A DNA stretch of 64,000 bases, taken from assembly GCA_040255215.1 (NCBI GenBank), contig JBDZUM010000003.1, positions 8,673 through 72,672 on the forward strand, read 5' to 3'. This DNA comes from Rhodospirillaceae bacterium. GTDB lineage: Bacteria > Pseudomonadota > Alphaproteobacteria > Reyranellales > JAQSWP01. This document shows positions 1-59,689 of the stretch, one piece after another; the stretch's first letter is position 1; each line of letters opens with the position of its first letter. The position numbers and the translations under genes were made by a program. Below the pieces are notes generated by a model. That model had not been told where the DNA came from and made no database searches. It worked only from the letters and a program-made list of their open reading frames with translations.

Positions 1-256
1 CTGTCAATAGTTGCCGATAGCCCCGCTCCGTCATCCACTTGGCCCGTTTGAGGTGAGCTTCCCAGCAGTGCCGTGTCCGGTCAGGCTCGGCCGCCGGATT
101 GCGGTGCAGGACGATCCGCGCCACCTCTCGCCAGTCGGCTCCCTCGTCGTCTGCATCCAGCAGCCGCAGGTAGGTGACGAAGTGCTGCTCGTCGTAGCGG
201 GTGACGCTGTCTGACCAAGGCACGTCGTCGGCAACGTCGGGATCAAGCTCGGTCAT
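1..256 (-). CDS. DUF2285-type small protein, QseM-like antiactivator (C-terminal end cut by window edge)
   Basis: Own minus-strand translation from the ATG at 256-254: MTELDPDVADDVPWSDSVTRYDEQHFVTYLRLLDADDEGADWREVARIVLHRNPAAEPDRTRHCWEAHLKRAKWMTERGYRQLL. Absent from the ORF track because it runs off the edge. Shares the LR..DA..GA.W.E.A ... GYR.LL pattern with the C-terminus of the 2961-3704 frame. Divergent from an XRE gene, as in qseM-qseC. Confidence 0.7.
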   Translation of the reverse strand, partial: MTELDPDVADDVPWSDSVTRYDEQHFVTYLRLLDADDEGADWREVARIVLHRNPAAEPDRTRHCWEAHLKRAKWMTERGYRQLLT

Positions 257-320
257 AGTCCGGCCTTCCTGAAGCCGTCCGTCTCCGCTGGGTGCAGACG
301 GAGGCGCCGCCGTCGAAGAA

Positions 321-354
321 TATCCCGATATGGGATAATCCGAAATCAGGATTA
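321..354. promoter_or_regulatory. Two overlapping palindromes in the divergent QseM-like/QseC-like intergenic region (candidate operators)
   Basis: TATCCC-gatat-GGGATA (321-337) and TAATCC-gaaatca-GGATTA (336-354) lie between the divergent starts at 256 and 390. Confidence 0.55.
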
Positions 355-389
355 GTGGAAGAACCGGCCTCACCATTTAGCCGGTTTTC

Positions 390-680
390 ATGCCCAAATC
401 GCTCCGCACGCCGCGGCAAGAACGACTGCAAGCATTATTAGCCCAAGTCCGGAAAGCCAGGAAGCTCACGCAATCCGATGTTGCCAAACGGCTCGATCGC
501 CCGCAGTCCTTTGTCGCCAAGTATGAAGGCGGGGAGCGTAGGCTGGATGTCGTTGAATTCGTTGAGGTCGCCGAAGCGCTTGAAACAGACCCCTGCGCAT
601 TACTCTCGAACCTTCTTCACGCCGACGAGCCTTTGCCGCCTGCGATCCAAGGTCGCCGACCAAGGCGCACCAGAGCCTAG
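390..680 (+). CDS. XRE-family helix-turn-helix regulator (QseC-like)
   Basis: HTH_XRE signature [42 protein letters not shown]. Divergent from the DUF2285 gene. Confidence 0.8.
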
Positions 681-804
681 GTAAATTCGTTGCCGGTCCA
701 GACTTCGCGGGCCGGTCTAGGCGTGTCTGTCCGCCGCGCACTTACGCCATCAGCATATCACTTCGGGTGCGCAAGAGGGATCGGTATCGTGACCGTCATG
801 CAAA

Positions 805-1743
805 TCAGGTCCGGTCTATACGGAAGCGCGACGGCGTGGTGCCCGTTAGCTTCCGGAAATTGTCGGTGAAGTGGCTGTGGCTGGCGAAGCCAACGGAGAT
901 CGCGATCTCGGCGATAGACTGTTCGGCGCCGAGCAACAGTTCCTTTGCCCGGAGGATGCGCCGTTCGATCAGGTAGCGATGCGGCGATGTGCCGGTGGAG
1001 GCCTTGAAGGCCTCGCCAAAATGATGTGTGCTCAAGCCTGCCAGCCCCGCCAGGTCGCTCAGGCTGATGTCGTCGGCGAGGTGTGCTTCGATGTAGTCGA
1101 CGACGCGCCGCAGGCGCAGCGCGCCGAGTCCGCCGATCACTGGCGGCGACCGGCTGAGCCCATCGCCATAGGCACGGAAGACATGCACGGCGAGCGCCGA
1201 CCCCAACCCCTCAGTATAGAGCCGCCCGCCCGCGCCGCGTTCGGCCAGTTCCCGGCGCCACGCCGCAGCCATGCCCTCGATGACCGGATCCCGGATGCCG
1301 ATCTGGGTCCTCAGCTCCAGCTCCTTCCCATCGAAGGCCTCGCCGACGATCTGCTTGATGAAGGCCTGTTCCATCGCGATGACGAGAATGCGCGGCGAAC
1401 TCGTCCAGCGCTGAAAGATCGGGCGGTCCCCGGAGTTGACATGGAGATCGCCGGAGACGATCCGGCGGCGCTCCGTTTCACGCATTTCCGGCAGCCGCCA
1501 TTCCATCTGGAACGGCGTGCCCTCGTGAATGGCGACCGTGAACTGCGTGGCGCCGATCTCAGTTCCCGGGTTCGGCTGCAATGTGCAGCGGCTGACGCCG
1601 ACGCCGTCATGGACAACCCGCTCGGCGTAGGACAACCGAGCCGAAGGAGTTTCGGAGCCGAAGTCGAGCAATTCTATTTGGCTCTTGGGCTGCGAATCCG
1701 GCATCCCTCGAAGCCTCCATACAATGGTATTCAAGGTTGGCAT
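805..1743 (-). CDS. AraC-family transcriptional regulator
   Basis: C-terminal double HTH: LSDLAGLAGLSTHHFGEAFKASTGTSPHRYLIERRILRAKELL ... IAISVGFASHSHFTDNFRKLTGTTPSRFR. Confidence 0.85.
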   Translation of the reverse strand: MPTLNTIVWRLRGMPDSQPKSQIELLDFGSETPSARLSYAERVVHDGVGVSRCTLQPNPGTEIGATQFTVAIHEGTPFQMEWRLPEMRETERRRIVSGDLHVNSGDRPIFQRWTSSPRILVIAMEQAFIKQIVGEAFDGKELELRTQIGIRDPVIEGMAAAWRRELAERGAGGRLYTEGLGSALAVHVFRAYGDGLSRSPPVIGGLGALRLRRVVDYIEAHLADDISLSDLAGLAGLSTHHFGEAFKASTGTSPHRYLIERRILRAKELLLGAEQSIAEIAISVGFASHSHFTDNFRKLTGTTPSRFRIDRT

Positions 1744-1952
1744 CCGAACGTCGAGTATCTATATGTTGCCTCGATCGCTCCGAGCACAGCCTCGTGCAAT
1801 GGTGGAAGGAATAGTAGAAGATTAGGACAAGGATAAGGCGAGAATTTCAGAAGCAATACTGGTCAATATTTATATAAACTTTACCATATTTACTTGATTT
1901 CTGATTCTGGCAAATTCCCGGGCGCATTGCGCAGTAAACGGAGGAAAGCCCG

Positions 1953-2570
1953 ATGTATCCCCGCTCCAGTCTGTTCATTTGCGCTGCTGCGCTGTCGCTT
2001 CTGACTGCGTGCGATGATCCGCCGAAGGCGGATGACAGTATCTTTGAAAAAACGCTGCAGACTTATTACGACTCGCACCCTGTCTGCGTCGCGATTCCGC
2101 TGACATTCCCCGTCGACCTGCGCAGCGACGGAGACACCGCCAGGAAGCGGCAGCTGGAACCTCTGGTGGCGGCCGGTCTGATCGCGGGCACCACTATCCA
2201 AAAGAACGAGCCCGCAGCGTCGGGACAAGGACAGGCGACCGACTATCTCCGCTACGCGCCGACTGCCGCCGGTGAGAAGGTCGTACGAAAGGGCGCGGAC
2301 AGTTTTCTCGGCGGCACGGACATCTGTTTCGCGCGGCGGAAGGTCGTGAAGATCGAGTCCTTCACCGAGCCCGCCGACGCTGCCGGGGTGAAGGCCTCGC
2401 GTGTCACTTATGACTATGAACTAAAAGACGTCGAGCCGTGGGCCACGGGACCCGATATCGCGGGCGCCTTCCCCCAGATTGCGGCTTTGCTGGCCAAGCC
2501 CGGTAACCAGGCGACCGACGTCCTGGTTCAGACCGATAACGGCTGGAAGCACGAACGCGACGTGCGCTGA
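1953..2570 (+). CDS. Putative lipoprotein, unknown function
   Basis: Signal peptide with lipobox LSLLTAC. Divergent from the AraC gene across an AT-rich spacer. Confidence 0.6.
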   Translation: MYPRSSLFICAAALSLLTACDDPPKADDSIFEKTLQTYYDSHPVCVAIPLTFPVDLRSDGDTARKRQLEPLVAAGLIAGTTIQKNEPAASGQGQATDYLRYAPTAAGEKVVRKGADSFLGGTDICFARRKVVKIESFTEPADAAGVKASRVTYDYELKDVEPWATGPDIAGAFPQIAALLAKPGNQATDVLVQTDNGWKHERDVR

Positions 2571-2875
2571 CGAAAAGCCTGTCGAAATCGAAGCCGAACT
2601 CGTGCTACACAGCCACGGGCTGCAACCGGCTCTTGCGCTGCGGCACTATGCCAGTCCCGTCGCCTGGCGATTACCCCGATTTCTCGACAATCTCCGGTTG
2701 AACGCGGAAGCGGTGCGTCTGCCGCGCACCAATATCAACGGGTGTCGCTGGTGACTTCTTCCCGAGGCCCGTGCCGCATCTGAGCGACGAGCCATTCTCC
2801 CCAGCGACAGATCGTCGAACAGCTCCGCTCGGCGCGTTGAATGCCACGAGCGATGCGACGGGAGGAGGCAGTGCC

Positions 2876-3704
2876 ATGGCAAAGGAGATTCCTCAAGAAC
2901 CCGGCGAACCGTCGCGCGCCGATTGGCGCGATCCCACGAACTACAAATCCCTGCTGACTCTTGACCGTTCCGGCTGGGCTTGGAATTGGCTCCGCCGAAA
3001 TCCCGACTACATTGCCCGAACGAGTCAACTTCTTGCGCGTAGGCGGCTCGAACAGCCCGGCACGCGATTGCGCGTCATCACCACATCGGATGCCGAGGAG
3101 GCGCGCGATTGGGGTTTGCACTTTCGCGGAGGCGCCGATCCGCCCGGCAACCGATGCCTGCATCTTCTGGCGAGCCGATTGGGATACATCGGTGCTGGCT
3201 GCCGAGACGCTGCCAGTGCGGCACGGCGATGGCGATGCCTTCGACATCCGCCGTTTCGACAGCGTGGCGACCGTACTACGGTGCCCTGACGGCCACGAGC
3301 ATCTGCTCCTCAGTGATGGGGTACATCACCTCCAGATGGAAGTGACGGCGGGCAGCCTGCTCGATGGCCCCGTTCGCTTCCGCTACGAGCTGTCCGGCTT
3401 CAAGCATATCGAGGCGAAGACGCTGACGCTGCGCCGCCTGATGCTGCTCCACCGCCTTGGACGCTTCCCGAGCGGGCTCTATCCCCCGGAACGCCGCGCC
3501 CGCCGCTGGGCGATGGCGCTTCGGGCCCATGACGCGGTGGGGGCCGGTGCCAGTCATCGCGAAATCGCCGCGGCGCTCTTCGGCGAGAAGGTCGTCAAGG
3601 AAGATTGGTGCGGCCGGTCAGACTATCTGCGCCTTCGGGTACAACGGCTCCTCCGAATGGCGGACAAGCTGGTGAACGGCGGCTATCGCGATCTCTTGCG
3701 ATGA
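2876..3704 (+). CDS. FseA-like ICE transfer activator (N-terminal WxWLRRNP domain plus C-terminal DUF2285), requires a +1 frameshift near 3122-3126
   Basis: Frame of 2771 gives MAKEIPQ...ADWRDPTNYKSLLTLDRSGWAWNWLRRNPDYIA...EARDWGLHF, with a GGAGG Shine-Dalgarno sequence before ATG 2876. Frame of 2961 continues AEAPIRPATDACIFWRADWD...GGYRDLLR. The junction is at CAC-TTT-C-GCG. Confidence 0.7.
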
Positions 3705-3744
3705 GCCGGAACGCGGAAGGAGTAGCGGCCTTTGCGGCCGTACG

Positions 3745-3825
3745 AGTGAGAGGGCGGCTGGGGATTCCGTGACGGGTTGAGGAGGCGAGAGAGAGGCTCT
3801 TGCCGGCCCGTCTCGGAGATCCGCG
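3745..3825 (+). repeat. Class-1 conserved structured leader, copy A (upstream of ardC)
   Basis: gagagggcggctggggattccGTGACGGGttgaggaggcGAGAGAGAGgctcttgccggCCCGTCtcGGAGAtccgcgATG. Outer stem GACGGG (3771-3776) / CCCGTC (3807-3812). Confidence 0.6.
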
Positions 3826-4788
3826 ATGTCACGTTCAACCGCTTGCGCTCGCTCCGGTCGGGACCGGGCGAGCCTCTATCAGGAAATCACCGACAAGTTT
3901 ATCGCCGAGCTGGAGGCAGGCCGCGTGCCCTGGGTCCAGCCCTGGGGCACGACGGCGGCGAAGGCATCGCTCGCCATGCCGAAGAATGCTGCGACCAGCC
4001 ATTGCTACTCCGGGATCAATGTGCTGATCCTGTGGCGTGCAGTCGTAGAGCGCGGCTTTTCGGGCCAGCGCTGGCTCACGTTTCGCCAGGCGCTTGGGCT
4101 CGGCGGCCATGTCCGTAAGGGCGAGACCGGCACGACTGTCGTCTATGCCGACCGCTTCGTTCCCGACGAGGAGCGCCGGCGGGCCGAACGCGACGGGGAC
4201 GAGCCGGGGGCCATCCCTTTCCTGAAGCGCTTCACGGTCTTCAACACCGACCAATGCGAGGGCCTGCCGCGGGAGCTCTCGACCTCGCCGCCGCCCGTGG
4301 CAGAGGGCATGATCCTGCCGCAGGCCGAGGCCCTGATCGCGGCCACGGGCGCGGATTTCCGCATCGGCGGCGACCGAGCCTTCTACAGCCCATCGCACGA
4401 TTTCGTCCAAGTGCCTCGGCCCGACGCCTACTTCGAGCCGATCAACTGGCACCGCACGGCGCTGCACGAGCTCGGCCATTGGAGCGGCCATCCCTCCCGG
4501 CTCGGCCGTGACCTGTCGGGCGGGTTCGGTTCCGTGCCCTATGCCAAAGAAGAGCTCTGTGCGGAGATGACCAGTGCCTTCGTCTGCGCCACGCTCGGCA
4601 TCGTGCCGACCGTGCGGCACGCCGACTACCTCGGATCCTGGCTCGAGGTGCTGCGCGAGGATGACCGCGCCATCGTTCGTGCCGCGAGCGCCGCGTCAAA
4701 AGCCGCGGACTATCTGCTCACCTTCCAGTCGCATCCCGACGAGCCCGTCGATATGGCGGCCGACGAAGACGAGCAGGAGGCGGCGTGA
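3826..4788 (+). CDS. ardC: ArdC-like antirestriction protein (ssDNA-binding N-domain plus zincin metallopeptidase)
   Basis: N-terminal YQEITDKFIAELEAGRVPWVQPW and C-terminal HEXXH motif TALHELGHWSGH. Confidence 0.85.
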   Translation: MSRSTACARSGRDRASLYQEITDKFIAELEAGRVPWVQPWGTTAAKASLAMPKNAATSHCYSGINVLILWRAVVERGFSGQRWLTFRQALGLGGHVRKGETGTTVVYADRFVPDEERRRAERDGDEPGAIPFLKRFTVFNTDQCEGLPRELSTSPPPVAEGMILPQAEALIAATGADFRIGGDRAFYSPSHDFVQVPRPDAYFEPINWHRTALHELGHWSGHPSRLGRDLSGGFGSVPYAKEELCAEMTSAFVCATLGIVPTVRHADYLGSWLEVLREDDRAIVRAASAASKAADYLLTFQSHPDEPVDMAADEDEQEAA

Positions 4789-4825: not shown

Positions 4826-5791
4826 TTATGCTGCTTGCCGCGCGTGTTCGCAGCGGTGAATTTCGACCGTGACGTGGGAGAGCTGCGGCAGCTCGCGGAG
4901 CCTCGCTTTGTAGTGGCCGGGTTCTTGGGGGCGATCAGATATGACCGATACGATCACCGCCATATGGCCGGGGCCGATCCGCCACAGATGCAGATCTGAA
5001 ACCCGATCCCCATCATGTTCGAGTGTATGGCGGATCTGCTCCGACAGAGCGGTGTCCGGCATCGTGTCGAGCAGAACCGCCCCCGCGTCCCGAAGCAGTC
5101 CCCATGACCAACGGGCAATAACGACGCCTCCCACAATCCCCATGAGCGGGTCCATCCAGAGCCAGCCGTAAAACCGCCCGCCGAGCAGTCCAGCGATCGC
5201 CAGAACAGAGGTCAGCGCATCGGTGAGGACATGGAAATAGGCGGAACGCAGATTATGATCCTGATGGCCATGCGCATGCGCGTGTGGGTGACCGTCCTGC
5301 CGACCATGGTCATGGTGCTGATGATCGTGGTGACCGCCGTCGTGGAGCAGCCACGCGCTCACCAGATTGACGATCAGTCCCAAAACAGCCACGGCAATGG
5401 CCTCATTGAAGCGAATAGGGATAGGCGCGGTGAGGCGGAGCACGGACTCGAACCCGATCAACAGGGCGATAACTGCCAAGATGACGGCGCTTGAATATCC
5501 GGCCAGCTCTCCGAGCTTGCCGGTTCCGAATGTGAAGCGCTCGTCGTGAGCGTTGCGGCGTGCGTAGAGATAGGCGACAGCCGCAATCGTAAGCGCCCCG
5601 GCATGGGTCGCCATGTGAAAACCGTCGGCCAGCAGCGCCATCGACCCGAACATGGCTCCGGCGATGATCTCTCCGAACATCATCACAGCCGTCAGGCCGA
5701 TGACGATCCAGGTCCGCCGCTCGTTGCGGGCATGATCCGCACCAAGGAAAACATGATCGTGTTGCCAGGACTCGACGGAATCGGAGTGCAT
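4826..5791 (-). CDS. dmeF: Cation diffusion facilitator, DmeF-type Co(II)/Ni(II) efflux transporter
   Basis: N-terminal SWQHDHVFLG, six TM segments, and a His-rich loop HDGGHHDHQHHDHGRQDGHPHAHAHGHQDH. Confidence 0.85.
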   Translation of the reverse strand: MHSDSVESWQHDHVFLGADHARNERRTWIVIGLTAVMMFGEIIAGAMFGSMALLADGFHMATHAGALTIAAVAYLYARRNAHDERFTFGTGKLGELAGYSSAVILAVIALLIGFESVLRLTAPIPIRFNEAIAVAVLGLIVNLVSAWLLHDGGHHDHQHHDHGRQDGHPHAHAHGHQDHNLRSAYFHVLTDALTSVLAIAGLLGGRFYGWLWMDPLMGIVGGVVIARWSWGLLRDAGAVLLDTMPDTALSEQIRHTLEHDGDRVSDLHLWRIGPGHMAVIVSVISDRPQEPGHYKARLRELPQLSHVTVEIHRCEHARQAA

Positions 5792-5805: not shown

Positions 5806-6072
5806 TTAGAGGTATTTCGTAATCTCGCGGAACTCCGCGATCTTCTGTTGAACTTCAGGCGGTAGCGGGCCCGTAACCTCCCCCAAGTGGTGGTCGATGT
5901 GATCGATGATCAGCATCTGCTTAGCCTTCTCTAGTGCCTTGATCACGGCCTGCATCTGTTGGGCGATCACCATTCCGTCCCGTCCCTCGACGACCATACG
6001 GACGACAGTTGAGAGATGGCCTTCGGCGCGGCGAAGACGCCTGAGAATATCCGGATTGTCTGCATGGCTCAT
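5806..6072 (-). CDS. dmeR: CsoR/RcnR-family metal-sensing repressor (DmeR-like)
   Basis: 88 aa, LRRLRRAEGHLSTVVRMVVEGRD...IIDHIDHHL. Lies immediately upstream of the CDF gene. Confidence 0.85.
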   Translation of the reverse strand: MSHADNPDILRRLRRAEGHLSTVVRMVVEGRDGMVIAQQMQAVIKALEKAKQMLIIDHIDHHLGEVTGPLPPEVQQKIAEFREITKYL

Positions 6073-6102: not shown

Positions 6103-6245
6103 CGGTCAAGTATGATAAACTTCGGTAGCGTCTCAGTTTGGCTCTCGCTTTTGGTAAGAGACGCGGCTTATCGCAGGCGGGGCGTTGCTCGGCTCCGATC
6201 TATTGGGGCATTCATTCGCTTCCCCACTTCGCATTAAGGATGCCT

Positions 6246-6626
6246 ATGGCAGATCGTCTGAAGAACTGGGCGCGTATCATTAAGCGGGATGTACATGCGC
6301 TGTACCTCGCCAGCCGCGATCCTCGCGTGCCCTGGTATGCCAAAGCCTTGGCCCTTGTCGTGGTGGGCTACGCGCTCTCCCCGATCGATCTTATTCCCGA
6401 TTTCATTCCGGTTCTGGGCTACCTGGATGACGTGATCCTGCTTCCGCTTGGTATCCTTCTCGTCATTCGCCTGATCCCTCCGAAAATTCTGGCTGAACAC
6501 CGTGACTTGGCCGCAGCGGCTCAGGAGCGCCCGGTGAGCCGCAGAGCGGCTGTTGTGATTGTCTGCATCTGGGCAGCTTGTATTGGACTGTCGGGATGGT
6601 TCGTCTATCGCTATTTCGGGCGCTGA
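6246..6626 (+). CDS. DUF1232 (YkvA-like) membrane protein
   Basis: YAKALALVVVGYALSPIDLIPDFIPVLGYLDDVILLPL. AAGGA Shine-Dalgarno sequence 5 nt before ATG 6246. Confidence 0.75.
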   Translation: MADRLKNWARIIKRDVHALYLASRDPRVPWYAKALALVVVGYALSPIDLIPDFIPVLGYLDDVILLPLGILLVIRLIPPKILAEHRDLAAAAQERPVSRRAAVVIVCIWAACIGLSGWFVYRYFGR

Positions 6627-6664
6627 AATTCAAACGGACACACTGCCCGGACGCGTTGGCTCCA

Positions 6665-6747
6665 GAGGGAGAGGCGGGAGGGGGACTTTGTGACGGGTTT
6701 GGAGGTCGAGAGAGAGGCTCCCGGCCGGCCCGTCATGGAGAACCGAC
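6665..6747 (+). repeat. Class-1 conserved structured leader, copy B (upstream of parB-like gene)
   Basis: gagaggcgggagggggactttGTGACGGGtttggaggtcGAGAGAGAGgctcccggccggCCCGTCatGGAGAaccgacATG. Near-identical to copy A. Confidence 0.6.
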
Positions 6748-8829
6748 ATGGCAACCGCCAATCCCAAGATCGTCCTGAGCCGGTCCCAGGACATTCCCTT
6801 CAACAAGCTGGTGCTGTCCCAGGCGAACGTCCGCCGGGTGAAGGCCGGCATCTCGGTCGAGGACCTGGCCGAGGATATCGCCCGGCGCACGCTCCTGCAG
6901 AGCTTGAGCGTGCGGCCGGTACTGAACGCTGAGGGCGTCGCGACCGGCATGTACGAGGTTCCGGCCGGCGGCCGGCGCTTCCGTGCGCTCGAACTGCTCG
7001 TGAAGCAGAAGCGCATGGCCAAGACCCAGCCCGTGCCGTGCGTCGTGCGCGAAGGCGGGACGCCCGAGGAGGACAGCCTGGCCGAGAACGTCCAGCGCGT
7101 CGCGCTCCATCCGCTCGACCAGTTCCGGGCCTTCCAGACCCTTCGCGACTCCGGCCTGGGTGAGGACGAGATCGCCGCCCGTTTCTTCGTCAGCCCCAGC
7201 GTCGTGAAGCAGCGCCTGAAGCTCGCATCGGTCTCGCCGAAGCTCCTCGACATCTATGCCGGCGACGAGATGACGCTCGAGCAGCTCATGGCCTTCACCG
7301 TCACCAATGACCATGACCGGCAGGAGCAGGTGTGGGAGCAGCTTGCCCGCTCCTACAACAAGGAGCCCTATTACATCCGCCGCCAACTTACCGAAGGCGC
7401 CATCCGTGCCTCCGACAAGCGGGCGCAATTCGTTGGCATCGAGGTCTACGAGGCGGCCGGTGGCGCCGTCATGCGCGATCTCTTCCAGCAGGACGATGGC
7501 GGCTGGCTGCAGGATCCGGCACTGCTCGACCGGCTCGTCGTCGAGAAGCTGACCAAAGAGGCGGAGGCGCTCCGCGGCGAGGGCTGGAAATGGATCGAGG
7601 TCGCGGCGGAGTTTCCCTACGGCCATACCGCCGGTCTCCGCCGCCTTGCCGGGGAGACGGCATCGCCTACCGACGAGGAGCAGGCGACCCACGACGCGCT
7701 GCGCGCCGAGTACAACAAGCTGGAGGAGACCTACGCGGAGGTCGAAGAACTCCCCGACGAGGTCGACCAGCGTCTCGGCGAGATCGAGACAGCGCTGGAG
7801 GCGTTCGACGATCGCCCTGTGATCTACGATCCCGCCGACATTGCCCGTGCCGGCGCCTTCGTCAGCATTGATGGCGACGGCGATCTGCGCATCGAGCGCG
7901 GCTATGTCCGTCCCGAGGATGAAGCGCCGGCCGAGCCGGACGCCGATGGCGACGCGCCCGAAGGTTCCGAGGACGACGGCGATGTCCAGCGCACGGTGGT
8001 CACCATCGGCGGCAACGGATCGTCGGCGAGTGCCGAGACCGCCGAGGAGGAAGATGGCATCAAGCCGCTGCCCGACCGTCTGGTCACCGAGCTCACCGCT
8101 CATCGCACGCTGGCGCTGCGCGACGCGCTGGCGAACGATCCCGACACCGCCTTCGTCGCGGTTCTTCATGCGCTCTGTCTCAACGCCTTCTATCGCTATG
8201 CGTCTGAGACCTGCCTGGAGATCGCGGCGAAGAGCGCGAGCTTCGGCACGCAGGCGCCGGGGCTCAACGACAGTGCGTCGGCCAAGGCGATCGAGGGCCG
8301 GCACGCGCAATGGGCCGGACAATTGCCGAAGGACGCCAGTGACCTCTGGAACGCGCTCATCGCCTTCGACGGCGACAGCCGCGCATCGCTGTTCGCGCAC
8401 TGCGCGTCGCTTTCGGTCAACGCGGTCCATGAGCCGTGGAACCGCAACCCGCGCCGCATCGTCCATGCGGGACGGGTCGCCCGAGCCGTCGGTCTCGACA
8501 TGGTCGCGGCCGGTTGGACGCCGACCGTCGACAACTATCTCGGCCGCGTCACCAAGGCACGCATCCTCGAAGCCGTGCGCGAGGCCAAGGGCGAAGCCTC
8601 GGCCCAGCTCATCGACCACCTCAAGAAGCCGGACATGGCGAAGGAGGCCGAGCGCCTGCTCGCCGGATCGGGGTGGCTGCCCGAGCCGCTTCGCCTGCCG
8701 GACGCCGAGACGGCTGTCGACGAACCGGCCACGACCGAGAATCTACCGGCGTTCCTCGATGACGACGAAGGCGCCTCCGTGGACTCCGATCCGAAAGAGC
8801 CGCAGCCGCCCGCCATCGCGGCAGAATGA
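6748..8829 (+). CDS. ParB/Srx N-terminal-domain protein (large ICE ParB-like protein)
   Basis: ParB box YEVPAGGRRFRALELL. 693 aa with an acidic central linker. Position after ardC is typical of this ICE backbone. Confidence 0.85.
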   Translation: MATANPKIVLSRSQDIPFNKLVLSQANVRRVKAGISVEDLAEDIARRTLLQSLSVRPVLNAEGVATGMYEVPAGGRRFRALELLVKQKRMAKTQPVPCVVREGGTPEEDSLAENVQRVALHPLDQFRAFQTLRDSGLGEDEIAARFFVSPSVVKQRLKLASVSPKLLDIYAGDEMTLEQLMAFTVTNDHDRQEQVWEQLARSYNKEPYYIRRQLTEGAIRASDKRAQFVGIEVYEAAGGAVMRDLFQQDDGGWLQDPALLDRLVVEKLTKEAEALRGEGWKWIEVAAEFPYGHTAGLRRLAGETASPTDEEQATHDALRAEYNKLEETYAEVEELPDEVDQRLGEIETALEAFDDRPVIYDPADIARAGAFVSIDGDGDLRIERGYVRPEDEAPAEPDADGDAPEGSEDDGDVQRTVVTIGGNGSSASAETAEEEDGIKPLPDRLVTELTAHRTLALRDALANDPDTAFVAVLHALCLNAFYRYASETCLEIAAKSASFGTQAPGLNDSASAKAIEGRHAQWAGQLPKDASDLWNALIAFDGDSRASLFAHCASLSVNAVHEPWNRNPRRIVHAGRVARAVGLDMVAAGWTPTVDNYLGRVTKARILEAVREAKGEASAQLIDHLKKPDMAKEAERLLAGSGWLPEPLRLPDAETAVDEPATTENLPAFLDDDEGASVDSDPKEPQPPAIAAE

Positions 8830-18844: not shown

Positions 18845-20974
18845 TCAGCTCCGCAGCATGCGCAGGCCCGAGGCGATGACGAGGAACTCGCTCACCTCGT
18901 GGGCCACCACCACGATCGGCAAGGAGAAGGCGCCAGCCATGGCGCCGACGATCAGCGCGCCGATGACGACGGCGGACAGCGCGAGGTTTTGCTTGACGAC
19001 GGTTTGCGTGCGCTGCGCATGCCTCAGCGCATAGACGAGCTTCTCCAGGTCGTCCGCCATCAACGCCACGTCCGCCGTCTCCAAGGCGACATCGGTGCCG
19101 GCGGCGCCCATGGCGACCCCGACCGTCGCTTCTGCAAGCGCCGGTGCGTCGTTGACGCCGTCGCCCACCATTGCGACGTGGCCGCGCTCTTCCGCAAGGG
19201 CGCGGATCTTCGCGACCTTGTCCTCCGGCTTGAGCGCGGCGAAAACCTCGTCGATGCCGGCGTCCTTGGCGATGGCTTGGGCCGTGCGCGGGTTGTCGCC
19301 CGTCAGCATGACGATGCTGCGGATGGCGGCTCGGTGCAGCGCCGCGATGGCCTGTCGGGCGTTCGGCCGGAGCGTGTCGCGCAGGGCGAGCAGTCCCCAG
19401 GCCCTCCGGTCGTCGCCGACGATGATGACCGTCTTGCCGTCGTCCTGGAGCCGCGCGATCTCGCCCTCGAGGCTCTCGAGCGGAATGCTGAGCCGGCTTT
19501 CGAACAGCGCCGGGCTGCCGATATAGAGGCGGCGCCCGTCCACGGATGCTTCGGCGCCGACGCCGGTCAAGGCGCGGAATCCGCTTACGTCAGGGACGGC
19601 GAGATCGGCTTCACGGGCGCGGCGCACGATCGCGCGGGCAAGCGGATGCTCGCTGTGGCGCTCGACGGCCGCAGCCATCGCGAGCAGCGCGTCCGCGTCC
19701 GCCGGGCTTCCGTCGCTCCGGCCTGCCAACAGGATATCGGTCACCTGAGGCTGGCCGCTGGTGAGCGTCCCCGTCTTGTCGAGGGCGACGACACTCACCT
19801 TGGCGAGCTCCTCCACGTAGACGCCGCCCTTGACCAGCACGCCGTTGCGGGCCGCCGTTCCCAATGCGGCGACCATGGTGATGGGGATGGAGATCACCAG
19901 CGCACACGGCGCGGCGGCGACGATGAACACCGTTGCCCGCATTACCGCGTCCTGCCAGGAGAGGCCAAGCGCGAGCGGGAGACCCAAGGCGGCGAGGATG
20001 CCGAGCCCGAGCACCGCCGGGCTGTACCAGGCGCCGAAGCGCTCGATAAAGCGCTGGCTCCGACCGCGTCGCTCCTGCGCTTCCTCGACCATCTGGATGA
20101 TGCGGGCCAGCGTGTTGTCGGCGTGCGTCCGGGTGGCGCGGACCTCGAGCGCCGCCTCGCCGTTGATGGTGCCCGCGAACACGGAGTCGCCCGGTTCCTT
20201 CTCGACAGGCACGCTCTCGCCTGTGACCGGTGCCTCGTTCACGCTCGATAGGCCGCTGAGGATCTCGCCGTCGGTCGGCATGGCCTGGCCGGGCCGCGCG
20301 ATGAATACGTCCCCGACGCGTAATTCCTCCACCGGAATCTCGACCTCCCTGCCGTCGCGGCGGACAAGGGCCACCTTCGGAGCGAGCGCCATAAGCGCTC
20401 TGATCGCCGAGCGCGTCTTCTCCTCGGTGTAGCCTTCGGCCGCCTCGGAGATCGAGTAGAGGAAGACCAGCATCGCGCCTTCCGCCGGCTGGCCCATGAT
20501 CGCCGCGACGACGGCGGCCACGGACATCAGCAGCTCGATGCCGATCTCCCGCTCGAAGACCAACTCCTCGATGGCCTCGCGTCCGAAGAAATAGCCGCCG
20601 ATGAGGATTGACACGATGTAGAGCGGCACCGCAGGGACCTCGGCTGCGGGCGCCATGCTTGCGAGCCAGCCGACAAGCAGGAGGAGGCCGGATGCGGCGG
20701 AGGTGAGGACCTTGGCGTTACGCCACGGCTTCGGCAGCGCCGGCAGCTCGCGCCCTTCCTCGGCCGGGAAGCCGGCCTCGCCGAGCTGCCGTCGAACCTC
20801 GGCCGCCGACGTCGCCGCGGGATTGAATCGGACCCGGACCTTGGCAGCCTTGGGATAGACGTCGATGTCCGCGATCCCCGGGCGGCCCGAGAGACCGCGC
20901 CGCAGCGCCGCCGCGTCGTGCTCGCAATCCAGATTGGCCACGCGCCACTCAGCGCTCTCGATCGTTCGGTTCAT
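18845..20974 (-). CDS. Heavy-metal P1B-type ATPase (Cd/Zn/Pb-like context), atypical APC transmembrane motif
   Basis: DKTGTLT, GDGVNDAP and TGES-type (VTGESVPV) motifs. TM6 reads AAAPCALV rather than CPC. The N-terminal HMA-like domain has a single Cys (NLDCEHD). ATG 20974 preferred over TTG 20992. Confidence 0.85.
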   Translation of the reverse strand: MNRTIESAEWRVANLDCEHDAAALRRGLSGRPGIADIDVYPKAAKVRVRFNPAATSAAEVRRQLGEAGFPAEEGRELPALPKPWRNAKVLTSAASGLLLLVGWLASMAPAAEVPAVPLYIVSILIGGYFFGREAIEELVFEREIGIELLMSVAAVVAAIMGQPAEGAMLVFLYSISEAAEGYTEEKTRSAIRALMALAPKVALVRRDGREVEIPVEELRVGDVFIARPGQAMPTDGEILSGLSSVNEAPVTGESVPVEKEPGDSVFAGTINGEAALEVRATRTHADNTLARIIQMVEEAQERRGRSQRFIERFGAWYSPAVLGLGILAALGLPLALGLSWQDAVMRATVFIVAAAPCALVISIPITMVAALGTAARNGVLVKGGVYVEELAKVSVVALDKTGTLTSGQPQVTDILLAGRSDGSPADADALLAMAAAVERHSEHPLARAIVRRAREADLAVPDVSGFRALTGVGAEASVDGRRLYIGSPALFESRLSIPLESLEGEIARLQDDGKTVIIVGDDRRAWGLLALRDTLRPNARQAIAALHRAAIRSIVMLTGDNPRTAQAIAKDAGIDEVFAALKPEDKVAKIRALAEERGHVAMVGDGVNDAPALAEATVGVAMGAAGTDVALETADVALMADDLEKLVYALRHAQRTQTVVKQNLALSAVVIGALIVGAMAGAFSLPIVVVAHEVSEFLVIASGLRMLRS

Positions 20975-20997
20975 CGTTGATCCCGTCTCCAAATTGG

Positions 20998-23740: not shown

Positions 23741-23881
23741 CGTGTGATTTCGCACGCCCGCTCGAATTCGCGGGGGGCGCCTTTTCGAGCGTCCCGGAAC
23801 GCGCCCCATCGCGCCCATCCTCGCTTGGCGCGCGGCGACGTTCGCCGTCGCCGCCTGCACCGCAATCGAGGAGCGCCGAAG

Positions 23882-24154
23882 ATGGATGACGAGATCGTCC
23901 GGGCCGCCAATGCGAAGAAGGGCAGCCCGTTTCTGAACACCGACCAGGCCGCCCACTATGTCGGCCTGTCGCGCCGGACGCTCGAAAAGATGCGCACGGC
24001 CGGCGGCGGGCCGCGCTTTCGCAAGCATGGCCGCTACGTCCGCTATCACATCGACGACCTCGACGAATGGTCGGCCGAGCACGTCAAGACGTCGACCTCG
24101 GAGCCCGACCGTCCGCGTCCCGCCCGGCCCGAGAACGGCAGGGCACGGCAATGA
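23882..24154 (+). CDS. rdfS: Excisionase-type HTH protein, RdfS-like recombination directionality factor
   Basis: FLNTDQAAHYVGLSRRTLEKMRTAGGGPRFRKHGRYVRYHIDDLDEW. First gene of an rdfS-traF-transglycosylase arrangement as in ICEMlSymR7A. Confidence 0.7.
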   Translation: MDDEIVRAANAKKGSPFLNTDQAAHYVGLSRRTLEKMRTAGGGPRFRKHGRYVRYHIDDLDEWSAEHVKTSTSEPDRPRPARPENGRARQ

Positions 24155-24699
24155 TCGAACGGTTTCTCACGCGCACGAAGCGGCGCCGGCGCGGGCAAAG
24201 GCGCCCGCGTGCAGTCCTCGCCCTCTCTCTGCTCGGGCTCGGCCTCATCGGCCTCGCGACGCTCGCCCGACCGGCGCCGCGGCTCGTGTGGAACGCCAGC
24301 GCCAGTGCCCCGATTGGCCTCTATCGCGTCCTGCCGGAGAACGCTGTACGCGGCGATCTGGTGCTAGTCCGTACACCGGAGTCCGTGCGGCAGCTCGCCG
24401 CCGAACGAGGCTATCTCCCGCTGAACGTCCCGTTGGTGAAGCGCGTCGCGGCGGCGGACGGCGACATCGTCTGCGCCGCTGACAATGCGATCTCCGTCAA
24501 TGGCCGCGTCGTTGCCGAACGGCTGGCGCGCGACCGCCTTGGCCGTCCGCTGCCGCGCTGGAGCGGCTGCCTTCTCCTCGATGTCGGCGAAACCTTCCTG
24601 CTCATGGAGGGCGTCACCGATTCCTTTGATGGCCGGTATTTCGGGCCAGTCCCGACGGCCGCGATCATTGGGAGGCTCGCGCCGCTATGGACCGAGTGA
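24151..24699 (+). CDS. traF: Conjugative S26-family signal peptidase TraF
   Basis: ATGA overlap with the previous gene. NASASAPIGLYRV...LVKRVAA...GDSFDGRYFGPV pattern. Confidence 0.8.
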   Translation: MIERFLTRTKRRRRGQRRPRAVLALSLLGLGLIGLATLARPAPRLVWNASASAPIGLYRVLPENAVRGDLVLVRTPESVRQLAAERGYLPLNVPLVKRVAAADGDIVCAADNAISVNGRVVAERLARDRLGRPLPRWSGCLLLDVGETFLLMEGVTDSFDGRYFGPVPTAAIIGRLAPLWTE

Positions 24700-25340
24700 C
24701 CCTCCTGCTGCTCGGCGTATTGGCGGTCGGACCCATCCCTAGAGCCATGCCCGCCTATGCCGAACCCGCCGCCACGACAGATGCCGCGCTCGATCGCTGG
24801 CGGGATTTCATCGCCGAGGCGTCGCGCCGGTTCGGCGTGCCCGAGGCCTGGATACGCGCGGTCATGCAGGCCGAGAGCGCCGGCCGGACAATGCTCGACG
24901 GCCGTCCGATCACCTCGCACGCCGGGGCGATGGGCCTGATGCAGGTGATGCCCGACACCTATGAGGAGATGCGGCGCGCGCACGGTCTCGGCTCCGATCC
25001 GCACGACCCGCGCGACAATATCCTGGCGGGCACCGCCTATCTGCGCGCCATGCACGACCTCTATGGCTACCCAGCCTTGTTCGCCGCCTACAATGCCGGG
25101 CCGGACCGATACGACGACCACCTGCAGCAAGGCCGGCCTCTGCCGGCCGAGACGCGGGCCTACCTCGCATCCATCGCGCGGATCGATCCAGGCCCGCCGC
25201 CGTCGCCGTCCGTGGCATCGGGAACGCGGCTGTTCTTCAAGCTGCGAACCGTTGCCGATATGTCATCCGGTCGCGATGGGGTGTCGCCGTCGAGCGGCCT
25301 GTTCGTCCCGTTGACCACCGTGCCGGATGGCCAGCGATGA
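24687..25340 (+). CDS. Lytic transglycosylase (SLT domain)
   Basis: VMQAESAG, AMGLMQVMP and AAYNAGP motifs, with a signal peptide. Confidence 0.85.
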   Translation: MDRVTLLLLGVLAVGPIPRAMPAYAEPAATTDAALDRWRDFIAEASRRFGVPEAWIRAVMQAESAGRTMLDGRPITSHAGAMGLMQVMPDTYEEMRRAHGLGSDPHDPRDNILAGTAYLRAMHDLYGYPALFAAYNAGPDRYDDHLQQGRPLPAETRAYLASIARIDPGPPPSPSVASGTRLFFKLRTVADMSSGRDGVSPSSGLFVPLTTVPDGQR

Positions 25341-28555: not shown

Positions 28556-28981
28556 GTGGTGGCGGAACTGAACATTGTCGGGCACGGGATCGATCTGGTG
28601 GATATCGCCGAGATGCGGCGATGGATCGATGATCCGCGCGATCCATTGATTCCGCGCTGCTTCGTTCAGGAGGAGTTAGATGAGGTGGGCGGAGGACCCG
28701 ACCGGATCGAGCGCTTAGCCGGCCGGTTCGCCGCGAAGGAAGCTGTCTTGAAGGCGCTGGGAACTGGGTTTGGGGCTGGCGTCGCTTTTTCTGACGTGAT
28801 CATCCATCGCGCGGCGGGCGGACCGCCGCAGGTCCGGCTTACGGGCGGTGCCGCAAAGGCTGCGGCGGAACTAGGCATTGCTGAATGGCGGCTGAGCATC
28901 AGCCACACCAGCGCAATGGCCATGGCGAGCGCCATCGCGATCGGCGGCGCGCTTCACGACGAAGGGTCTGATCGCGCCTGA
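28556..28981 (+). CDS. acpS: Holo-ACP synthase (AcpS-type 4'-phosphopantetheinyl transferase), accessory copy
   Basis: GHGIDLVDIAEM, RFAAKEAVLKALG and RLSISHTSAMAMA motifs; 141 aa. GTG start. 3' end overlaps the convergent MazG-like gene by 28 nt. Confidence 0.8.
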   Translation: MVAELNIVGHGIDLVDIAEMRRWIDDPRDPLIPRCFVQEELDEVGGGPDRIERLAGRFAAKEAVLKALGTGFGAGVAFSDVIIHRAAGGPPQVRLTGGAAKAAAELGIAEWRLSISHTSAMAMASAIAIGGALHDEGSDRA

Positions 28982-29874
28982 TCGGCAGCAGCCTGACCGA
29001 GGTAGTCGATGCGGCGATGGTCGAGATCCACCGCGATCCGACCGCCGCGCGCGGCGAGGACAGCGCGCCATACCTTGAAGCCCTGCAGGATCGCCTGCTC
29101 CCACTCGCCCGTCGTGCACTGCTTGACCTCCAGGTGTGAGGTCATGTCCTTGATCGTGCGCAGGAGTTGGAAGTCGAGCACGCTGACACCCTCGAGCATG
29201 TGATGGCGTCGGGCATAGTCGAAAGCGAGCGCGGCCACGCCCTCCTCGATCACCGCAGCGCGTCCGCCATCTTCGACCTCGTCGAGGAGCGGGCGGCTCT
29301 TGCGCTTGCGGCGCAGCAGCGCGCGCGTGATCGGCGACCAGCCCAGCACGGCGGCATAAGCGAGATGGAAGACGTCGTGGAACCGATAGCCATCCGGATC
29401 ATAGGCGTTGTCGGTCAGCTCGGCGCCGAACGGCTTGCCGTTGATCAGCACGCGGACGTGCTGACGATCATCGCCTTCGACGTCGAGCAATTCGACCTCG
29501 AACCGGCGCGGCAGGCGCTCGCCTTCGGGAAGCGTCGCATCGAAACACAGCGGCTCGGTGCGCTCAGTCGCCCAGCGCGCCATCACCTTGGCGAGGTTGG
29601 CGGCCGCGATCTCATCGAGAGTCAGGTCGAACTTGCTCGCGACGTTCGCAATGTACCAGAGTAGGTCGCCAAGCTCCTCGGACACGCGCTCTTTGAAGAG
29701 CCGGTGCGCTTCGCCATCGCGCAGATGCTTCTTGTATTCGCTCAGAAGCTGACCGGTTTCGCCGGCGAGACCCAGCATTGGGACGATGAGGGAAAGGCTA
29801 TCATCCGCACCCTCGCCCGCCGGGACGCGATCGGTGCGCAGGGCCTCTTTCTGATATTGGTCGAAATCCATCAT
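28954..29874 (-). CDS. MazG-like NTP pyrophosphohydrolase with about 200-aa unknown C-terminal domain
   Basis: FDQYQKEALRT, LGLAGETGQLLSEYKK and EELGDLLWYIANVA (all-alpha NTP-PPase signatures). ATG 29874 follows an AAGGAG Shine-Dalgarno sequence; GTG 29889 is the alternative start. Confidence 0.75.
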   Translation of the reverse strand: MMDFDQYQKEALRTDRVPAGEGADDSLSLIVPMLGLAGETGQLLSEYKKHLRDGEAHRLFKERVSEELGDLLWYIANVASKFDLTLDEIAAANLAKVMARWATERTEPLCFDATLPEGERLPRRFEVELLDVEGDDRQHVRVLINGKPFGAELTDNAYDPDGYRFHDVFHLAYAAVLGWSPITRALLRRKRKSRPLLDEVEDGGRAAVIEEGVAALAFDYARRHHMLEGVSVLDFQLLRTIKDMTSHLEVKQCTTGEWEQAILQGFKVWRAVLAARGGRIAVDLDHRRIDYLGQAAADQARSDPSS

Positions 29875-29890
29875 CGTCTCCTTCGGCACT

Positions 29891-31075
29891 TCACCCAGCG
29901 GCCGCCCTCGCCGCGTCGATCGCGCCGGGCGGCGTGTCGGCGCCGACGCGTATCTTCTCGTTCAAATTCCATTTCGGAGGATAGAAGAGCTCGATCGGAG
30001 TCGGAGTCGGCTCGAACTTCTGCTTGATCCGCGTGCGTCCGGTTCGCCCTGCGATCTGAGGGTGCGCGACGCGCGCATATTTGTCGACTTCGCAAAACAG
30101 ATTCTGGCAGTCTATCAAGTGGAGCCGCCGTCCCCAGAGCGATTGAAAGCCGAGGCCAAGGCGCTCGAACTCCTGCTCCTGCAGATCGGCCATGAGCCGA
30201 ATCAGTTCAGGTTCGTTGAGTCCCCCGGGGTCGACGAAGCATTTGCGCAGACCGTCTCGCGCGCCAGGCCCTGGCACGACGAAATCCATCTCACTGAAAT
30301 CGGTGATCTCGCTGTAGTTGATGTCGGTGATGAACTGATAGGCGAGAAAGTCGCCGATGGTGGGGTAGGCACGGAGTTTCTCGAACCCTTCCTGCATGGT
30401 GCGGGTCTGTGCCAACCGTTCAGGGAGTCGGTCCGCCATCATGCGTTCGAGCAACAGCAGGTGATTCTGATGCTTCGCGGATCGCCCAAACGCGCTGCTG
30501 CCTGGCGGCATGATGTAGGCGGCAGAGTAGATGCGGTGGCCGTCACGCATAGCCCGCGCGAGCACCTCGTCGTAGCGTGCGAAGCGGTAATCTTCGAACG
30601 TGATTGAGCCGAACGATCGCTCCAGCAGCTCCCAAGTCTCGATCTTGTTGAACAGCTTGAACAACAGGATGCGGAAGAAGACTTCACGCGGCGAGCTCGG
30701 CAAATCGGCGCGATAGATGACGTGTCGAATAAGATATTGGCTCGCCCGATCGGAAGCCCGATAGGCGTTGGTGAACTTGTAGGTAGTGAGCACCGCGTTG
30801 CTGGTCCAAGGCCGCGCCTCGCCGCGCGCGCGCCGGAAGAAGACGTCTTGGCGTTCGGCGGCGAAGCGCCAATAGCTCTCATAGACCTCCGAAACCTTGG
30901 CGGGCGCGAGATGGGGCAGAATGATCGGCTGCGGCGCGGTTGCGGCGGGCGCGTCGTTGGCTCGCGGCGCGACCGGCAGGTCTATCGGCAGTGTGGCGGT
31001 CGCAGGATCAATGCGCGGCTTCGGTGGGCGGCCGCGCGGGCGTTTGGCGGCAGGCTTGGGGGGCTTCTTCCTCAA
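29891..31075 (-). CDS. Protein of the 5-hmdU DNA kinase helical-domain / aGPT-pyrophosphorylase-like family, with N-terminal AT-hook
   Basis: Core YESYWRFAAERQDVFFRR..ARPWTSNAVLTTYKFTNAYRASDRASQYL recognised from memory of proteins annotated as 'nucleotide kinase domain / DNA base hypermodification'. N-terminal KRPRGRPPKPR. No ATG is available; the TTG start overlaps the upstream stop (TTGA). Confidence 0.55.
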   Translation of the reverse strand: MRKKPPKPAAKRPRGRPPKPRIDPATATLPIDLPVAPRANDAPAATAPQPIILPHLAPAKVSEVYESYWRFAAERQDVFFRRARGEARPWTSNAVLTTYKFTNAYRASDRASQYLIRHVIYRADLPSSPREVFFRILLFKLFNKIETWELLERSFGSITFEDYRFARYDEVLARAMRDGHRIYSAAYIMPPGSSAFGRSAKHQNHLLLLERMMADRLPERLAQTRTMQEGFEKLRAYPTIGDFLAYQFITDINYSEITDFSEMDFVVPGPGARDGLRKCFVDPGGLNEPELIRLMADLQEQEFERLGLGFQSLWGRRLHLIDCQNLFCEVDKYARVAHPQIAGRTGRTRIKQKFEPTPTPIELFYPPKWNLNEKIRVGADTPPGAIDAARAAAG

Positions 31076-31926
31076 GATGCTGTCCCGACGGCCATGACCG
31101 GGACTGCGGGCCGAGCCGGCGCTGCGACAGGAGCAGGCACCAGAGCTTGGGCGGCGACGACGAGCGGCGCGAAATCGGGATCGCTTTTGGTAATGCGCTC
31201 CAGCTTGGCGACGCCGACCATGACGTTCAGCCGCGCCAGCGGCATATCCATCTCATGGGCCATGAAGGCGCCAAGCTGGGCGAGGCCGAGATAGTTGCCA
31301 TAGGCTTTGTCGAAGATTTGCTGGGTCGCGTAGAAGGCGTTCACGACCAGGCCGGCGGCGGTCGGCTCGAAGCTGACCTGTTGCAGGCAGGGGAAGCCGA
31401 GCTGCGCGCTGGCGACATGATCGCGCCCTGGGTCGAAGGTCGTCGCCTGTAGCATCGAGCGGCGCACGCCCGCTCGCGAACCATATTGTGACAAGATCCA
31501 CTCCAACTGATTTCCGTCGCACGGCCCGCGGCCGTACATGATCATGCGTTCGAAATACAGGCCGCGGCCGTTGGCTTTCTTGTTCATCGCCTGCCAGCGC
31601 GGGAATGTCGCACGATAAAGTGTGAAAAGGCGGGTGCGGTCGCCGCGCGACATCTCCCAGATGCGCTGCGGAAAGATGGTGAAGGCGACATCCTCGACCT
31701 TGAGACGCCCCTTGCGTTTGAGGAGCTGATCGACGGCTAGGCGCACGGCCGGATCTTCAGGCGCCACGCCCGTGTCGTCGAAGCCGGTCACGCTCAATAC
31801 CAGCGGCGAGACCTCGGTGCCGGCGCCGTCGAGAACTCCGAGCAGGAGGCGCGACCAGGCTCGCGATAGGTTGTTGTCGTTGATCATGACGGGCTCCGGC
31901 GCGGCCGATGCTTTCGACTTACTCAT
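31072..31926 (-). CDS. Divergent thymidylate synthase / pyrimidine hydroxymethylase-fold protein
   Basis: Manual alignment to ThyA: RRSMLQATTFDP ~ RRIIVSAWNP; LGFPCLQQVSF ~ LPPCHxxFQF (catalytic Cys kept); YATQQIFDKAYGNYLGLAQLGAFMA ~ YQRSxDxxLGxPFNIASYxLLxxMMA. GGAGG Shine-Dalgarno sequence. The start overlaps the upstream stop (ATGAGTAA). Confidence 0.6.
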   Translation of the reverse strand: MSKSKASAAPEPVMINDNNLSRAWSRLLLGVLDGAGTEVSPLVLSVTGFDDTGVAPEDPAVRLAVDQLLKRKGRLKVEDVAFTIFPQRIWEMSRGDRTRLFTLYRATFPRWQAMNKKANGRGLYFERMIMYGRGPCDGNQLEWILSQYGSRAGVRRSMLQATTFDPGRDHVASAQLGFPCLQQVSFEPTAAGLVVNAFYATQQIFDKAYGNYLGLAQLGAFMAHEMDMPLARLNVMVGVAKLERITKSDPDFAPLVVAAQALVPAPVAAPARPAVPVMAVGTAS

Positions 31927-32812
31927 CCGGGTCGTCCTCCAGATGGCGATACTGTGCGAGGCCGACATAGGCCTCGGGTGCGATACGAACGAACGCCGCC
32001 CAGGCGCCGCTGTCGGCGGCTGCCTGAACGATTCCGGGGCGCACCGCGCGGAACAGGCGGCCGTTCGCCAAGTCACGCTCATAGGCGAGGCCGGTGCCGG
32101 TCGTTGCCGTTCCCGGAGGAAGGAGCAACAGCATGTTTACCTCGGCATCGAGGGTCGGCCCCGCGCGGTGGCGGTCGGCGACGATCAAGGGCTCGGGCGT
32201 CAGGGCGCCGAGGATGTCGGCGCGCAGGGCCTTTGGCGTGACGCGCTGCAGGGCGGCGGCGCGCGTCCGCGAGATCATGTTCACGCTGGCCGAGAGGTGG
32301 GTGAGGAGCGTCCCGTAGCCGACGCCGAAATCGCAGGCGATCGTGAACATTTGCGCCGCCGTCGCGGTCTCGGGCGTCCAACCGCGCGTGGCGAAGGCGC
32401 GGCGTAGACCCATGATCGGCATCAGCGTGAAGCCCGCAAAGGTGTCGGCGAGGAATTCCTTTGGGTCTTCCCAGGGATGCTCCTTGGCGTCCTCGCGTAA
32501 CTCGTCGATCGATGAGCCGTGGCCGAAGACGTGATGGCCAAGCTCGTGCCCGCAATTATAGGCGCGCCGCGGCAACGGGCGACGCGCCGAGAGGTGGATG
32601 CGCGGCGGCGCGCCGCGTTGGTACATCCCCTCCATGTTGATGTTGTTGAAACGCACGGTGACGCCCAGCGTCTCGCAAAGCCCGTAAATGCAGATGGCGC
32701 CATGCTGGTCGAGCTTGGCTTTTGCCCGCGTGGTGATCGCCGCCTGCATGGCTTGGGTCGCAAGGGCGCGACGATTGAAATTGGGCTTGGTGGTGCGCAT
32801 CAGGTTCGTCAC
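31919..32812 (-). CDS. ImmA/IrrE-family metallopeptidase
   Basis: HEXXH motif YNCGHELGHHVFGH in a DUF955-like context. GTG start overlaps the XRE stop (GTGA). Confidence 0.8.
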   Translation of the reverse strand: MTNLMRTTKPNFNRRALATQAMQAAITTRAKAKLDQHGAICIYGLCETLGVTVRFNNINMEGMYQRGAPPRIHLSARRPLPRRAYNCGHELGHHVFGHGSSIDELREDAKEHPWEDPKEFLADTFAGFTLMPIMGLRRAFATRGWTPETATAAQMFTIACDFGVGYGTLLTHLSASVNMISRTRAAALQRVTPKALRADILGALTPEPLIVADRHRAGPTLDAEVNMLLLLPPGTATTGTGLAYERDLANGRLFRAVRPGIVQAAADSGAWAAFVRIAPEAYVGLAQYRHLEDDPDE

Positions 32813-59680: not shown

Positions 59681-59689
59681 GGCAGAACG

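Follow-up and report, generated by a model that had tools for sequence, protein, structure and literature searches.

The stretch from 2876 to 3704 of the window (the window being the whole 64,000-nucleotide piece of DNA analysed here) appears, from its sequence, to encode in a single gene an FseA-type protein that activates ICE excision and transfer, and the full protein would be made only by way of a +1 shift of the translating ribosome. We put the probability of this reading at about 85%. It draws on what was observed of fseA: a conserved two-frame architecture with selection acting in each frame, a conserved slip motif, and the fold and genomic setting.

The first, msi172-like part of fseA occupies codons 1–83 in frame 0 (2876–3124, forward strand). 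It is preceded by the Shine-Dalgarno sequence GGGAGGAGG (2860–2868, forward strand), 7 nt 5' of the ATG at 2876, which is kept in locus L001 and differs by one base in L002 (GGGAGAAGG). Translation from this ATG reads MAKEIPQEPGEPSRADWRDPTNYKSLLTLDRSGWAWNWLRRNPDYIA...EARDWGLHF, with TTT (3122–3124) as codon 83 and an AWNWLRRN motif at residues 35–42 of the FseA-like protein. Residues 16–84 of the frame-0 product match PF20109 (DUF6499, now "Trans_reg_dom") in Pfam with E 3.7e-14 and 53 bits, against a cut-off of 23.8. The second, msi171-like part lies in the +1 frame (3126–3704, forward strand), reads AEAPIRPATDACIFWRADWD...GGYRDLLR after C3125, and comprises a beta-rich middle domain and a DUF2285 extended-turn HTH before its TGA stop (3702–3704). 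Its C-terminus matches PF10074 (DUF2285, now "RovC_DNA-bd") with E 5.5e-20 and 72 bits, against a cut-off of 26.4. To judge from their scores, this pair of matches in two frames is far beyond chance. The initial annotation had described just such FseA-like halves offset by +1, and its coordinates are exact, with domain matches in both frames. The +1 frame is open for 56 codons 5' of the junction, and the two parts joined at TTT|C give a protein of 275 aa. The site itself, TGG GGT TTG CAC TTT C GCG (3110–3128, forward strand), holds an SD-like UGGGG in the Trp-Gly codons, UUU-C at 3122–3125 and GCG at 3126 as first +1 codon. Unshifted, frame 0 continues on the forward strand through 3125–3289 as a tail of 54 codons (RGGADPPGNRC...), rich in Arg and Gly (11 and 8 residues, respectively), to a TGA at 3287–3289. 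After 3126, GC3 favours the +1 frame (0.77 vs 0.48); the N-terminal part is not discriminated by this measure (0.64 vs 0.63).

Related DNA was collected by one genome scan and one metagenome scan (9-sequence alignment A3), with the two halves placed separately by tblastn; the genome scan, made with the single protein, gave two loci only. At 14 loci (L001–L012, L015 and L029), 48–97% identical in the C-terminal part and each from an independent assembly, the C-terminal half is again in the +1 frame relative to the N-terminal half, so that with the window there are 15 split sequences; in 16 more distant loci (about 40–55% identity) both halves share a single frame. All 15 split sequences carry the junction pattern TGG GGN NTN NNN TTT (W-G-x-x-F; TGGGG-N7-TTT), followed by C in 12 and by T in three, and the first +1-frame codon thereafter is mostly GCC or GCG. 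The proposal that alignment of split homologues would reveal a conserved TTT-C site is thus borne out in the form TTT-C/T. Codons near the slip site vary synonymously (GGT/GGA/GGG/GGC, TTG/CTG, CAC/CAT), and the junction TTT is never TTC. TTT accounts for 19 of the 234 Phe codons (8%) in confident genes of the window, and fseA itself uses TTC seven times and TTT once, at the junction. TTT-Y after W-G-x-x occurs in none of the 16 single-frame loci, nor in L041 or L042, two loci with single-ORF homologues. In L029 the open frames overlap for just 28 codons, with the slip site inside. The TTT-T variants are L002 (3262–3266) and L008 and L010 (1684–1688); here a shifted tRNA-Phe would re-pair with UUU, not UUC, and the frame-0 A-site codon is TGC.

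The selection on the two halves is seen in the mean pairwise diversity by codon position among 13 aligned split genes. On the 5' side of 3125, diversity at frame-0 positions 1/2/3 is 0.25/0.19/0.41, peaking at the third position of frame 0. On the 3' side of 3126, in the same numbering, it is 0.38/0.17/0.14, the peak now falling on the third position of the +1 frame. The switch comes between bins 3056–3125 and 3126–3185. Because the diversity peaks change over at the junction, both halves are seen to be under purifying selection, each in its own frame; a dN/dS near 1 in the C-terminal part is contradicted by these codon-position values. The +1 pattern holds also across the frame-0 tail region (3126–3289), where frame-0 third positions are the least variable, and the tail is therefore without frame-0 coding. 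Among the split relatives these tails span 17–427 codons and show no relationship at the protein level, which upholds the earlier suspicion that the frame-0 run-on is not real protein: it is not kept as such.

Homologues encoded by a single ORF, P0012 (at L041) and P0110 (at L042), belong to the same family as the window's fseA and allow the join to be placed. P0012 reads ...AWGCTFAEMPSRR... and P0110 reads ...QWGLHAFEPPS..., both aligning over the junction with no gap, and this collinearity agrees with the earlier claim that the halves meet seamlessly at CAC-TTT-C-GCG. This sequence comparison confines the join to the stretch between W-G (3110–3115) and A-E (3126 onward), an interval in which TTT-Y is the sole invariant. 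The DNA for P0012, TGG GGG TGC ACG TTC GCC GAG, corresponds to a split sequence that lacks one T of the GG(T)TTG run and has (G)TTC in place of TTT; L041 is thus one T from the split form, and the split and fused states interconvert via single-base indels beside the site. Because these genes have no TTT-Y at the junction, expression of single-ORF FseA is not limited by recoding. The single-ORF variants lie at 1501–2385 of L041, which shows the same AraC-fseA-ardC-parB synteny as the window, and at 1501–2277 of L042, where fseA stands directly between two LuxR-type (Autoind_bind) genes and rdfS-traF-SLT in a compact quorum-sensing-fseA-rdfS module. A further single-frame homologue, at about 1780 of L019, has an in-frame stop (..FFWLPE*NPLV..) and is probably a pseudogene or an assembly error.

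The closest known system is FseA of ICEMlSymR7A from Mesorhizobium japonicum R7A, in which the slip site is UUUC, tRNA-Phe moving from UUU to UUC with an efficiency of 4–13% (PMC4755241). The two systems share a DUF6499, middle and DUF2285 domain order, +1-offset ORFs that meet after W-G-L-x-F at UUU-C and continue with GCN, and an SD-like UGGGG 7 nt 5' of the slip site. In R7A the WGL beside the slip site is encoded by an SD-like UGGGGG (PMC10359603). Both also have QseM-like and QseC-like genes nearby and an rdfS-traF-SLT operon with an inverted repeat upstream. A msi172/msi171-type gene was compared in a Mesorhizobium plasmid locus (L032), where DUF6499 and DUF2285 are annotated as separate genes and a convergent DUF2285-only gene and an HTH gene adjoin. 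Its junction reads ...CAG TGG GGG CTC CTG TTT C GCA AGC..., with a frame-0 stop six codons on, and joining at TTT|C yields 266 aa with AWEFLRRN at residues 31–38, the same length and motif numbering as published for FseA (PMC10359603). This fusion and the 275-aa window fusion form a single HSP that spans the junction (32% identity, E 3e-33), with DWGLHFAEAPIRPATDACIFW in the window set against QWGLLFASS-LRP--DAAVFW. The likeness to the msi172/msi171 split drawn in the initial annotation therefore stands, the Mesorhizobium gene having TTT-C at the equal position. On the other hand, the frame-0 tail is 54 codons in the window vs 6 in R7A, and the cargo is metal resistance vs symbiosis.

The only serious rival holds that the second half is initiated on its own, so that DUF6499 and DUF2285 would be on separate polypeptides, acting jointly or independently, the second translated from an internal start in the +1 frame (ATG 3090 or GTG 3191). 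A +1-frame ATG or GTG does lie 7–12 codons 5' of the junction in 12 of the 15 split loci (ATG 3090 in the window), it is preceded by an SD-like GAGGAGG or GAGGCGG in L004, L005 and L011, and gene callers annotate DUF2285-only products of 170–204 aa. Yet the position of this start wanders (-7, -9, -10, -11, -12), L002 has one only at -27, and L015 and L029 have none; such starts are by-products of frame-0 GAT-G Asp codons, and ATG 3090 has no SD. The collinearity of the fusion with single-ORF homologues also speaks against two polypeptides, as do the findings that unfused msi172-msi171 in R7A gives 0.8% of the promoter activation of the fused gene (PMC4755241) and that DUF6499 helix 2 is a structural core of FseA (PMC4755241, PMC10359603). 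We regard separate polypeptides as improbable.

A different mechanism or position, namely RNA polymerase slippage on the T run or an earlier ribosomal shift between GGU and UGC, seems to us very unlikely. The single-ORF comparison bounds the junction just to W-G through A-E, and the W-G-C-T-F of L041 corresponds to the +1 frame from 3117 onward, as an earlier shift would have it; against this, GGN-YTG varies among split sequences (GGT TTG, GGG CTG, GGC GTC) and TTT-Y does not, and in R7A the shift is placed at UUU-C by review (PMC4755241). Transcriptional slippage was rejected, the T run of 3–4 bases being too short for known cases. As for a pseudogene or assembly error, in which a single-base insertion broke a continuous fseA, the 16 single-ORF relatives and the one base that parts the two states lend it some sense, but 14 further independent assemblies, with identities down to 48%, are split by +1 at the very same codon, both halves are under purifying selection with TTT-Y fixed, and TTTC is no error-prone homopolymer, all of which makes it exceedingly improbable.

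The fused product is also consistent with the FseA reading at the level of structure. An AlphaFold2 model of the window fusion (24-sequence alignment A2; mean pLDDT 79, pTM 0.75) opens with three helices at the N-terminus, is rich in beta structure in the middle and ends in a helical C-terminal domain. Foldseek against the PDB returned a single significant match, RovC (6xz5; E 1.6e-8, target TM 0.71, 245 aligned columns), and phmmer against PDB sequences likewise found RovC (E 6.5e-8) via the AWxxLRRNP motif and the DUF2285 region. The predicted whole-protein fold thus resembles that of FseA/RovC. RovC, a Yersinia chromosomal regulator of a secretion system (the activator of T6SS4), shares with the window protein the AWxxLRRNP helix and the DUF2285 DNA-binding domain, whereas it is a single ORF with no frameshift, lacks the first DUF6499 helix and is 17% identical to the window fusion.

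In the proposed mechanism, translation would begin at ATG 2876 and produce the DUF6499 domain; with UUU (3122–3124) in the P site, the peptidyl-tRNA-Phe would re-pair from UUU to UUC and C3125 would be skipped; and reading would resume at GCG (3126) through the middle domain and DUF2285 to give the 275-aa protein (...DWGLHF|AEAPIR...). The junction peptide expected from a UUU-C slip is ...DWGLHFAEAPIR..., and ribosomes that fail to shift would yield a 137-aa DUF6499 protein with a meaningless tail. That ribosomes do shift here, that they do so at a low rate, and that the FseA-like protein activates the window's rdfS promoter are suggested by the analogy with ICEMlSymR7A. By that analogy the shift would be rare and would limit active FseA, a dimer of which would bind the inverted repeat upstream of rdfS and switch on rdfS-traF-SLT, with the QseM-like protein binding the DUF6499 domain as an antiactivator.

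Such a shift has a well-known counterpart in prfB (RF2), where a P-site tRNA re-pairs in the +1 direction at a YUU-Y motif and an SD-like G-rich element lies upstream of it. The window's fseA is like prfB in both motif and element. In prfB, however, the slip occurs on CUU-U, the A site holds a UGA stop, the SD is 3 nt upstream, and the gene is autoregulatory; fseA has its G-run 7 nt upstream and, next to UUU in frame 0, CGC in the A site, a common sense codon and the commonest Arg codon here (52.8 per 1000). Because CGC is common (TGC in the TTT-T variants), neither a "hungry codon" pause nor a stop is evident at the A site. The SD-like GGGG at the slip site is inseparable from the need to encode Trp-Gly. 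A search for a conserved RNA structure downstream found none: the RNAalifold consensus has an energy of -6.3 kcal/mol, its covariation term is slightly unfavourable, and the window sequence after the slip site folds no better than shuffles (z = +0.9).

The regulatory neighbours of fseA are those to be looked for in an FseA system. At the very start of the window lies a QseM-like DUF2285-only ORF (1–256, reverse strand, ATG 256; PF10074 E 1.2e-9), the C-terminal ~15 codons of which fall beyond the window start and which is complete in L001, and divergent from it is a QseC-like XRE-family HTH gene (390–680, forward strand; HTH_31/HTH_3). The QseM-like/QseC-like pair that had been noted upstream of fseA is therefore present, and by sequence it matches the QseM/QseC arrangement, with a putative antiactivator role. 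Between the pair and fseA come an AraC-family gene (805–1743, reverse strand) and a 205-aa ORF (1953–2570) with a lipoprotein-like signal sequence at its start and no Pfam match; the pair thus lies 2.2 kb upstream of fseA, whereas in R7A it is directly downstream and convergent. On the 3' side of fseA is ardC (3826–4788), and the whole block just described, with ardC after it, is syntenic in L001–L006. A scan of 1–4000 for sigma-70 promoters and terminators found none, and repeats upstream of fseA are nothing remarkable.

The operon that the initial annotation had named as probable target is likewise in place at 23882–25340, with an inverted repeat upstream: rdfS (23882–24154; HTH_17), traF, an S26 peptidase gene (24151–24699) joined to rdfS by an ATGA overlap, and an SLT transglycosylase gene (24687–25340), all on the forward strand. 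By analogy, rdfS-traF-SLT is probably the target operon of the window FseA. The candidate FseA box, (C)TCGAA-N17-TTCGA(G), lies at 23762–23788 on the forward strand (23761–23789 with the outer C/G), 94–120 nt 5' of rdfS, and CTCGAA-N17-TTCGAG is the only TCGAA-N14-18-TTCGA in the 64 kb, with 0.56 matches expected across the window. Repeats ~105–120 nt 5' of rdfS are seen in relatives as GTCGAA-N15-TTCGAC (Variovorax), GTCGTT-N16-AACGAC (Sphingomonas) and in imperfect form (Sphingobium, Bradyrhizobium). The FseA box as published consists of two inverted hexamers 15–16 bp apart beside a -35 element; the candidate, set against this description of the box, fits it but for a spacer of 17 bp instead of 15–16 bp. 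No -35/-10 could be assigned next to the candidate box. On the 3' side of the SLT transglycosylase gene follow an ORF with no assigned identity and a DUF3363 relaxase, and beyond the relaxase TraG, a Trb-type T4SS and copper-resistance cargo.

Several further features of the element may be recorded. No integrase was seen among the scanned window ORFs, and for this reason the ICE ends probably lie outside the window; blastn against plasmids gave no close DNA relative. The cargo includes an AbiEii toxin gene with an upstream partner ORF, two multicopper oxidases, copB and an HMA-domain P-type ATPase (46247–48034, 48751–50223, 57914–60427 and 18845–20992). A CDF cation-efflux gene (4826–5791, reverse strand), an RcnR/CsoR-type repressor gene (5806–6072, reverse strand) and a DUF1232 gene (6138–6626) are missing, as the segment 4796–6662, from the otherwise syntenic L001 and have the look of cargo inserted between ardC and the ParB-like gene. 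Paralogous leaders of ~100 nt (3726–3825 and 6658–6753), 78% identical, lie directly 5' of ardC (ATG 3826) and of the ParB_N-like gene (ATG 6748). Both fold to a long hairpin, GACGGGUU...GAGAGAGAGGCUC...GGCCCGUC, right before the SD (z = -2.6 and -1.2), and the leader sequence is also kept 3' of fseA in L001, L003, L008, L010 and L012. A regulatory leader common to both genes is one possible role, a single-strand promoter serving early-transferred genes another; Rfam gave no match in the window, leaders included. Finally, the reverse strand between the relaxase and traG (28954–33411) encodes a MazG_C protein, a 5-hmdU DNA kinase helical-domain protein (E 6e-111), a 336-aa ORF, an M78 (IrrE-like) peptidase and an XRE HTH protein, a set typical of thymidine hypermodification in phages and found here within an ICE.

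The input to the window's fseA would also differ from that in R7A, where fseA is in the TraR-activated traI2 operon: among the scanned window ORFs there is no traR/traI or tra box, and about 55 ORFs scanned across the window gave no LuxR/LuxI match (Autoind_bind, autoinducer synthase). Many FseA/QseM ICEs are without quorum sensing (PMC4755241). We would offer, as a speculation more doubtful than not by a good way, that the conserved AraC-family regulator and the QseM/QseC switch 2 kb upstream together form the input to a frameshift-gated FseA in a quorum-sensing-free clade of metal-resistance ICEs, that the DUF6499 product of unshifted ribosomes, abundant and carrying a long tail of variable sequence, serves as a QseM-titrating decoy, and that the frameshift ratio might thereby set a threshold, beyond lowering FseA output.

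The window's fseA adds a new and diverged member to a class that is well described and in which splits are common: about 61% of 4709 curated FseA homologues from alpha-, beta- and gamma-proteobacteria are split by a conserved +1 site, and misannotation is frequent (PMC10359603). The initial annotation slightly overstated the novelty of the case, as non-symbiotic ICEs that lack quorum sensing were already known to carry split FseA genes (PMC4755241, PMC10359603), and the gene opens no new question. In protein searches nearly all close relatives are stored as DUF2285-only fragments of 170–204 aa. Gene callers split or truncate fseA, and its correct annotation marks the master switch of a copper- and cation-resistance ICE together with its likely operator and target operon. 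That a lineage diverged to 32% identity from R7A-type FseA keeps UUU-C/U speaks for recoding as a general brake on the transfer of ICEs.
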